DNA of 39,937 nucleotides from Escherichia phage T7. Each line of letters opens with the position of its first letter. Position 1 is the stretch's first letter. Shown piece after piece: positions 161 through 360 of the stretch. Location: the sequence record NC_001604.1. One strand, given 5' to 3'. Made by a program: the position numbers and the translations under genes. The notes under the pieces were generated by a model. That model searched no databases, was not told the origin of the DNA, and saw nothing but the letters and a program-made list of their open reading frames with translations.

Positions 161-167
161 ATCTGTT
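161..167 (+). promoter_or_regulatory. Concatemer-junction (CJ) T7 RNAP pause/termination motif ATCTGTT
   Basis: ATCTGTT immediately after the terminal repeat; matches the known class II pause signal. Confidence 0.6.
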
Positions 168-169
168 AC

Positions 170-360
170 AGTCTCCTAAAGTATCCTCCTAAAGTCACCT
201 CCTAACGTCCATCCTAAAGCCAACACCTAAAGCCTACACCTAAAGACCCATCAAGTCAACGCCTATCTTAAAGTTTAAACATAAAGACCAGACCTAAAGA
301 CCAGACCTAAAGACACTACATAAAGACCAGACCTAAAGACGCCTTGTTGTTAGCCATAAA
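170..360. repeat. Left-end array of about 13-bp periodic repeats with CCTAAAG core
   Basis: CCTAAAG or one-mismatch variants at 174, 188, 200, 213, 226, 239, 267, 280, 293, 306, 319, 332, 354; further copies inside the terminal repeat. Confidence 0.85.

Follow-up and report, generated by a model that had tools for sequence, protein, structure and literature searches.

CCTAAAG heptamer arrays flanking the terminal repeat of bacteriophage T7: anatomy, lineage-specific motifs, and a possible role as a packaging platform

The heptamer arrays near both ends of the analysed DNA were identified, with near certainty, as the known SRL (175-338) and SRR pair that flanks the 160-bp terminal repeat (TR) of phage T7. 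The names SRL and SRR come from the description of the T7 genome and have been in use for decades. The window, i.e., the whole stretch of DNA that was analysed, is sequence record NC_001604.1; T7 records matched its positions 1-800 at 100% identity, and the total length was 39,937 bp. The annotation of DQ100054 (T7.1) places TR at 1-160, a repeat_region named "SRL" at 175-338, and the promoter A0 inside SRL. T7 sequence, SRL coordinates, and a right-hand counterpart in the same orientation were all found, and genome, coordinates (SRL 175-338), and heptamer showed no difference from the annotated pair. The arrays are thus already described and their novelty is nil; our comparative data add only breadth and the lineage-specific turnover of the motif.

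Anatomy of the arrays and the junction

Exact CCTAAAG was present in 25 copies on both strands of the whole genome, where 4.71 ± 2.09 were expected and none of 100 shuffles reached 25. Sixteen of these copies were located in the terminal regions, every one of them on the + strand. When one mismatch was allowed, the + strand of 161-360 contained 13 heptamer copies, whereas the interior density of 2.5 per kb predicts about 0.5. The features of the left and right ends were as follows.

1-160, + strand: terminal repeat, left copy, an exact 160-nt match to 39778-39937
82-143, + strand: related motifs in the right half of TR (CCTTGAG 82, CCTAAGG 94, CCTTGGG 113, CTTTGGG about 124, CCTTGAG 137)
161-167, + strand: ATCTGTT, starting at TR+1 and preceded by T160, the sole + strand copy in the genome
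175-245, + strand: SRL sub-array 1, six heptamers (175, 188, 201, 213, 226, 239), 12-13 bp apart
267-338, + strand: SRL sub-array 2, six heptamers (267, 280, 293, 306, 319, 332), exactly 13 bp apart
355-361, + strand: outlying CATAAAG
369-387: two inverted heptamer-like units, CTTTAAT ... TCTTTAT, between SRL and phiOL and abutting the phiOL promoter
39606-39740, + strand: SRR, the right-hand array, in the same orientation as SRL
39606, 39621, 39634, 39658, + strand: SRR units CCTATAG, CCTAAGG, CATAAAG, and CCTAAGG, respectively
39671, 39700, 39734, + strand: further SRR units CCTAAAG, CCTAAAG, and CCTATAG, respectively
39744-39777, + strand: block CCTTTAAAATATACCATAAAAATCTGAGTGACTA, abutting the left border of TR in the junction
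39778-39937, + strand: terminal repeat, right copy, an exact repeat
17, 41, 60, 175, 188, 213, 226, 239, 293, 306, 332, + strand: starts of exact CCTAAAG at the left end
39671, 39700, 39794, 39818, 39837, + strand: starts of exact CCTAAAG at the right end
175, 188, 201, 213, 226, 239, 267, 280, 293, 306, 319, 332, 355, + strand: starts with up to one mismatch in 161-360

The successive spacings of the 13 copies in 161-360 were 13, 13, 12, 13, 13, 28, 13, 13, 13, 13, 13, and 23 bp. Autocorrelation over this region gave a lag-13 identity of 0.57 (z = 8.8; 0 of 500 dinucleotide shuffles) and significant values also at lags 26 and 39, and the windows over it had the highest lag-13 values of the genome. 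Furthermore, Tandem Repeats Finder reported period-13 arrays at 174-245 and 282-340. The sequence-only reading had proposed CCTAAAG arrays of about 13-bp periodicity; these are real and lie far above shuffled background, so that the objection of absent periodicity fails. Most of the starts that it listed were correct, but 174 and 200 should read 175 and 201, and the copies at 267, 280, and 355 had been overlooked. It had also described three consecutive ACCAGACCTAAAG units. This unit starts at 287, 300, and 326 in sub-array 2; only the first two adjoin each other, with a variant unit before the third.

In the 13-bp register, the heptamer positions carried 1.4-1.8 bits of information (position 2: 0.7) and the spacers at most 0.7; the spacers of sub-array 1 were variable, with a length of 5-6 bp. 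Judged from these sequence profiles, the heptamer plus its spacing look selected, and not the entire 13-bp unit. A scan with CCTNNNG placed the ten densest 200-bp windows of the genome all in 39551 to the end and 1-400 (7-12 sites, with a mean of 1.2). No open reading frame of more than 25 amino acids overlapped 161-360. A hairpin or inverted-repeat explanation was rejected; the inverted repeats there were only short and weak. In 13a, the place equivalent to 369-387 (about 398-425 of locus L001) carried a clean 13-bp direct pair, CATTGTCTTTAAT CACTGTCTTTAAT.

As a separate observation, CTAAAG is identical to the T3 RNA polymerase promoter (consensus CACTAAAGGGAGA) from -5 to +1, and the variant CCTATAG resembles that part of the T7 promoter. 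This likeness is probably a coincidence; the motifs of K11 and Berlin are unlike their own promoters. Three CCTAAAG triplets with 39-bp offsets were also seen at 7018-7128 of a 126-kb contig (L021, IMGVR_UViG_3300042887_002020); the size of this contig is not that of T7, and its tandem array is unrelated apart from the shared heptamer.

The repeat itself also contains heptamers. The left copy of TR holds CCTAAAG at 17, 41, and 60 and the variant CCTAAGG at 94, as the sequence-only reading had indicated. The CCTNNNG scan showed that the motifs of its right half are mostly 11-13 bp apart with one 19-bp gap, and the lag-12/24 autocorrelation of TR had a z of 4-5. K11-like repeats carry CCTTAGG/CCTTGGG at the place equivalent to T7 82-143. 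SRR was less regular than SRL (best lag 12, z = 3.6; 4 of 500 shuffles family-wise). The shorter right-hand array placed earlier at 39615-39710 is real but weaker, with an actual extent of 39606-39740.

In the concatemer, the order is SRR, one TR, ATCTGTT, and SRL, which brings 25-30 same-strand CCTAAAG-like sites together in about 0.7 kb. The arrays abut both TR borders, and repeated motifs thus adjoin the terminase cleavage sites, as in sites of the pac or cosB type. The CCTTTAAAATATACCATAAAAATCTGAGTGACTA block was kept in the junctions of T3, phiYeO3-12, the K11-like and Berlin-like phages, and L155 despite their differing array motifs, and it probably relates to the processing of the left border of the repeat.

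ATCTGTT, found at 161-167 where the sequence-only reading had placed it, is documented as the class II signal at which T7 RNA polymerase pauses or terminates in the concatemer junction. By the published class II rule, the non-template strand must read exactly ATCTGTT after an A, C, or T, and the site at 161-167 conforms to it. T7 RNA polymerase transcribing rightward is reported to pause or terminate 6-8 nt downstream of ATCTGTT, a position that corresponds to the first heptamer. The class II signal is a single 7-bp site read by RNA polymerase, whereas the arrays are separate from it and start 14 bp past its first base.

Conservation in relatives and changes in laboratory lines

The order of TR, ATCTGTT or ATCTGTA, and a same-strand array was observed in 13a, phiA1122, T3, phiYeO3-12, K1F, K11, Berlin, gh-1, and SP6, where the signal was placed within 1-2 bp of the TR ends used; most of the relatives had a regular spacing of 12-13 bp in the array. 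The same layout was found in about 40 distinct IMG/VR junctions, and it spans two subfamilies of Autographiviridae. In 13a, phiA1122, T3, and phiYeO3-12, ATCTGTT lies at TR+1 and CCTAAAG arrays begin at +12 to +14, with right-hand arrays and in-repeat copies present too. K1F has ATCTGTA, and its array motif is CCATAAG/CCTACAG. The check on conservation suggested by the sequence-only reading therefore turned out in its favour, the arrays being kept in T3, phiYeO3-12, and, with another motif, K1F. Among close relatives the copy number ranged from 4 to 14.

Scanning of IMG/VR with T7 gp19 gave 80 loci with 75-100% identity. The junction-complete loci among them had the same layout with lineage motifs CCTGAGG/CCTTAGG, CCTTATG, and CTATCAG. 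Reference genomes showed a comparable variety: a CCTGAGG array in K11, CCTTATG/CCTTAAG in Berlin (lag-13 identity 0.51), CCATAGG with irregular spacing in gh-1, and CCTTAGT in SP6 (lag-12 identity 0.44). The modal spacing was nevertheless 13 bp in every motif class, or 25-26 bp where a unit is missing. The motif varied with the phage lineage and not with the host; T7 and K1F, both of which are E. coli phages, differ. This tracking of lineage rather than host points to a phage-encoded reader.

One apparent exception was rejected: L148, which seemed to be a variant phage with CCTAAGG only, carries CCTAAAG triplets at the left end of the same contig (L027). Some relatives had a second, very regular array built from a different unit. 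In L165, a regular 12-13-bp array of TGACTACTCTTAG (11 copies) lies at about 4900-5035, 646-776 past the gene 19 stop and apparently upstream of a gene 19.5-like open reading frame. In Berlin (L218, 408-540), a second array of the GACTACTTAGAG type is annotated as a repeat_region downstream of its SRL.

Laboratory lines of T7 showed that phage without an intact ATCTGTT can be viable and that changes of the array involve entire units. Among evolved T7 clones, A161C in ATCTGTT was found in 25 MZ3752xx records and T162C in the unrelated clone T7_1t3; no describing paper was found by a search with the accessions. The pause-coupled step may thus be dispensable in some conditions, because ATCTGTT is mutated in many of the laboratory-evolved clones. 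Four clones (L219-L222; MZ375281, MZ375249, OL964750, and MZ375285) were aligned to window 1-420, and in this small sample no substitution was seen in the canonical CCTAAAG copies. Deletions of 18-19 bp or 8 bp inside the terminal repeat were observed in laboratory clones. T7_250L had lost exactly one 13-bp SRL unit, whereas T7_1t3 showed unit turnover, as part of which the variant CCTAACG (201-207) aligned to CCTAAAG. Any requirement for dosage would therefore be loose, given a copy number of 4 to 14 and the gain and loss of units in laboratory lines.

Replication, transcription, DNA shape, and slippage as explanations

We considered whether the arrays and their spacers place sites for T7 primase just inside each TR, on the lagging-strand template toward the ends. 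The last Okazaki fragment would then start beside the repeat, and the repeat would be left single-stranded for concatemer formation. Primase pentamers ([GT]GGTC, GTGTC) were indeed strand-biased: T7 SRL had none on the + strand and five on the - strand, and the 200 bp left of the right TR had four on the + strand and none on the - strand. These pentamers form two clusters, each on the lagging-strand template of forks that run to the nearby end.

245-330, - strand: cluster of primase pentamers at the left end
39538-39745, + strand: cluster of primase pentamers at the right end

Over the loci compared (L141-L168 and L001-L011), the same strand bias was observed in 13a, phiA1122, T3, phiYeO3-12, and K1F and in 12 distinct IMG/VR junctions. 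Across these 12 junctions, SRL had 35 minus-strand sites against 6.6 ± 2.5 in composition-matched shuffles, and SRR had 42 plus-strand sites against 4.4 ± 2.0, although the compared junctions are related and these counts are not independent. However, the heptamer contains no GTC, and the primase sites sit either in the spacers or in GGGTCT motifs of their own. T3 and phiYeO3-12 have a single such site each in SRL, and + strand sites are also present toward the right end of TR itself (143, 153). The primase sites may represent a further function of the region and not the cause of the heptamers. We therefore consider it unlikely that primase explains the arrays; the bias suggests an additional, replication-related layer.

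The arrays, at the end of the genome that enters the cell first, could also face the host, serving E. coli RNA polymerase at A0 or a junction promoter, or acting against early-region read-through as a rut-like, C-rich and G-poor RNA of about 13-nt period on which Rho loads. A0 lies within SRL as follows.

231-259, - strand: leftward E. coli promoter A0, with -10 TAGGCT at 231-236 and -35 at 255-259 (DQ100054)

The A0 start is given at 224 in the T7 record PP384394, and A0 is also annotated in 13a; a sigma-70 consensus scan did not detect A0, which is taken from annotation alone. Its -10 overlaps the heptamer at 226-232 (as the reverse complement), and its -35, TTGACT, follows a heptamer-like unit and sits in the 21-bp interruption of the array at 246-266, between the sub-arrays. 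A0 is likewise annotated among three heptamers, here inside the repeat, in T3 (126-150 of L003) and phiYeO3-12, of which T3 only had the TAGGCT and TTGACT hexamers read. Furthermore, nowhere in the genome was the C>G skew stronger than in 151-400 (-0.44; genome mean +0.07, sd 0.10), a region that is A+C rich on the + strand, and a 2026 preprint describes the T7 junction terminator as a context-dependent E. coli promoter with starts just downstream. A0, however, would explain only two or three of the approximately 13 units. A C-rich, G-poor stretch of at least 80 nt, as in a rut site, was seen in T7, K1F, and Berlin (skew -0.4 to -0.6) and not in K11, gh-1, or SP6; K11 and gh-1 lack the skew and SP6 shows it weakly, though all three have arrays. 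Since the motif follows the phage lineage and not the host, and since SRR and the in-repeat copies would be left unexplained, we assign this possibility a low probability.

Similarly, we see only a slight chance that the arrays act as a structural element, in which periodic short A-tracts, with no protein reading their sequence, give the junction or the left end an intrinsic shape or flexibility that serves when packaging ends or ejection begins. The 12-13-bp regularity is kept across lineages, and the left end of T7 is the last DNA packaged and the first ejected, both of which would suit such a role. Arrays of the K11 type (CCTGAGG) and the SP6 type (CCTTAGT), on the other hand, contain no A-tract, and bends repeated at 13 bp, out of phase with the helical repeat, would not add in plane. 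The conserved heptamer beside a free spacer suggests base-specific reading instead. Finally, it is improbable to about the same degree that the arrays are functionless tandem repeats made and kept by replication slippage or recombination near the ends: the variable copy number (4 to 14 among close relatives), the identical neighbouring units (ACCAGACCTAAAG), and the loss of one 13-bp unit and turnover of others in laboratory lines fit this, whereas heptamers kept while spacers differ, dispersed copies in SRR and the repeat with unrelated spacers, and a position, strand, and register that stay the same between subfamilies while the motif turns over speak against it.

A possible packaging platform and its candidate reader

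The RNA polymerase-lysozyme complex paused at the junction has been reported to interact with gp18 and gp19, which starts maturation and packaging. Papers citing Chung & Hinkle (1990) report that a concatemer junction together with a T7 origin makes plasmids packageable. It has also been stated that PacB is recognised by gp18 and PacC is cut by gp19. The gp18 proteins of T3 and T7 are interchangeable, and the packaging specificity of the two phages maps to gp19 and the terminal DNA. The sequence-only reading had assigned the arrays and the adjacent ATCTGTT to concatemer processing and packaging. This was upheld for ATCTGTT, which is a documented pause signal, and for the location at the junction; for the heptamers, it is location and analogy that point to such a possible role. 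The reading did not name the arrays as SRL and SRR, nor did it mention A0 within SRL. Its caution about the protein that reads the heptamers was consistent with our full-text literature search, in which no paper testing the heptamers was found, the primary T7/T3 packaging papers being outside its reach.

We give about even chances to the proposal, suggested by the anatomy of the junction, that the arrays offer many sites on which a maturation or packaging protein of the phage would gather. The heptamers would be putative asymmetric binding sites, one per 12-13 bp, and the protein would assemble on them head to tail into a multimer, both left and right of the repeat. The loaded complex would mark the junction and position the nuclease at the repeat borders, and it may keep hold of both DNA arms during duplication of the repeat and entry of the right end into the prohead. 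A step of 13 bp falls out of phase with B-DNA, which would make a simple wrapping around a ring awkward.

Several known systems resemble this arrangement. In the cosB site of lambda, the small terminase gpNu1 binds R1-R3, and this presumably holds terminase at the end that will be packaged. The likeness lies in repeated sites beside a terminase cut, with binding by gp18 being putative in T7. However, cosB has three 16-bp sites of mixed orientation with an IHF site on one side of the cut, whereas in T7 a 160-bp repeat is flanked left and right by same-strand 7-bp sites, about 25-30 in number. The pac site of P1 contains seven TGATCA/G hexamers in clusters on both sides of the cut, is regulated by Dam, and directs headful packaging. 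Short repeated motifs in two clusters that flank the cleavage region are common to both; the T7 heptamers, in contrast, have no GATC, are far more numerous, and belong to exact ends with a duplicated repeat. We infer that the T7 heptamers may be analogous in role to the lambda cosB sites or the P1 pac clusters. In parC of plasmid R1, 11-bp direct iterons are bound by ParR, which nucleates a helical protein-DNA scaffold. Many head-to-tail repeats of fixed spacing in two blocks around a promoter are shared with T7, but process and proteins are different, and the 11-bp spacing of parC is in helix phase whereas the 13 bp of T7 is not.

The best candidate for the reader would be terminase, as gp18 or the gp18-gp19 complex, although another phage protein may take this part. 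A heptamer common to T3 and T7, interchangeable gp18 proteins, and a specificity that lies in gp19 and the terminal DNA fit gp18 as the reader of a shared element. Because the heptamers are common to both phages, the T3/T7 specificity cannot reside in them. On the other hand, the basic helix of gp18 (RRSPQLYNAINKLLDRHKF) is almost invariant across motif classes, which counts against gp18. Identity to T7 gp18 was 73% for phiYeO3-12-like proteins, which go with the same motif, and 72% for K11-like proteins, which go with a different one. In the co-variation analysis, which covered gp18 only, D45 versus E45 was the only difference that tracked the motif class; the N-terminus and other residues did not. 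The only Pfam family of gp18 was PF11123, 'DNA packaging protein', and a PDB sequence search with gp18 found no solved structure of it or of a detectable relative. An AlphaFold2 model of gp18 was all-helical at moderate-to-low confidence (pLDDT 68), and Foldseek with this model returned no fold match.

A broader scheme, which we hold to be rather improbable, is that the Autographiviridae examined share a two-layer module for end definition, made up of a 12-13-bp CCTNNNG array with a phage reader other than gp18 and of interleaved, strand-oriented primase sites that fix the last Okazaki starts. If so, the primase layer would ensure that the single-stranded part used in concatemer formation is exactly the terminal repeat, and the turnover of the motif between lineages would reflect co-evolution with the reader.

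Among phages that have exact direct terminal repeats, T7 is the reference model, and the T7 junction serves in the construction of transducing particles and phagemids. The recognition, cutting, and duplication of the repeat are only partly understood, and SRL/SRR are the most conspicuous unexplained sequence at this place. The retention of position, strand, and the approximately 13-bp register while the motif turns over provides a practical handle on the reader protein.
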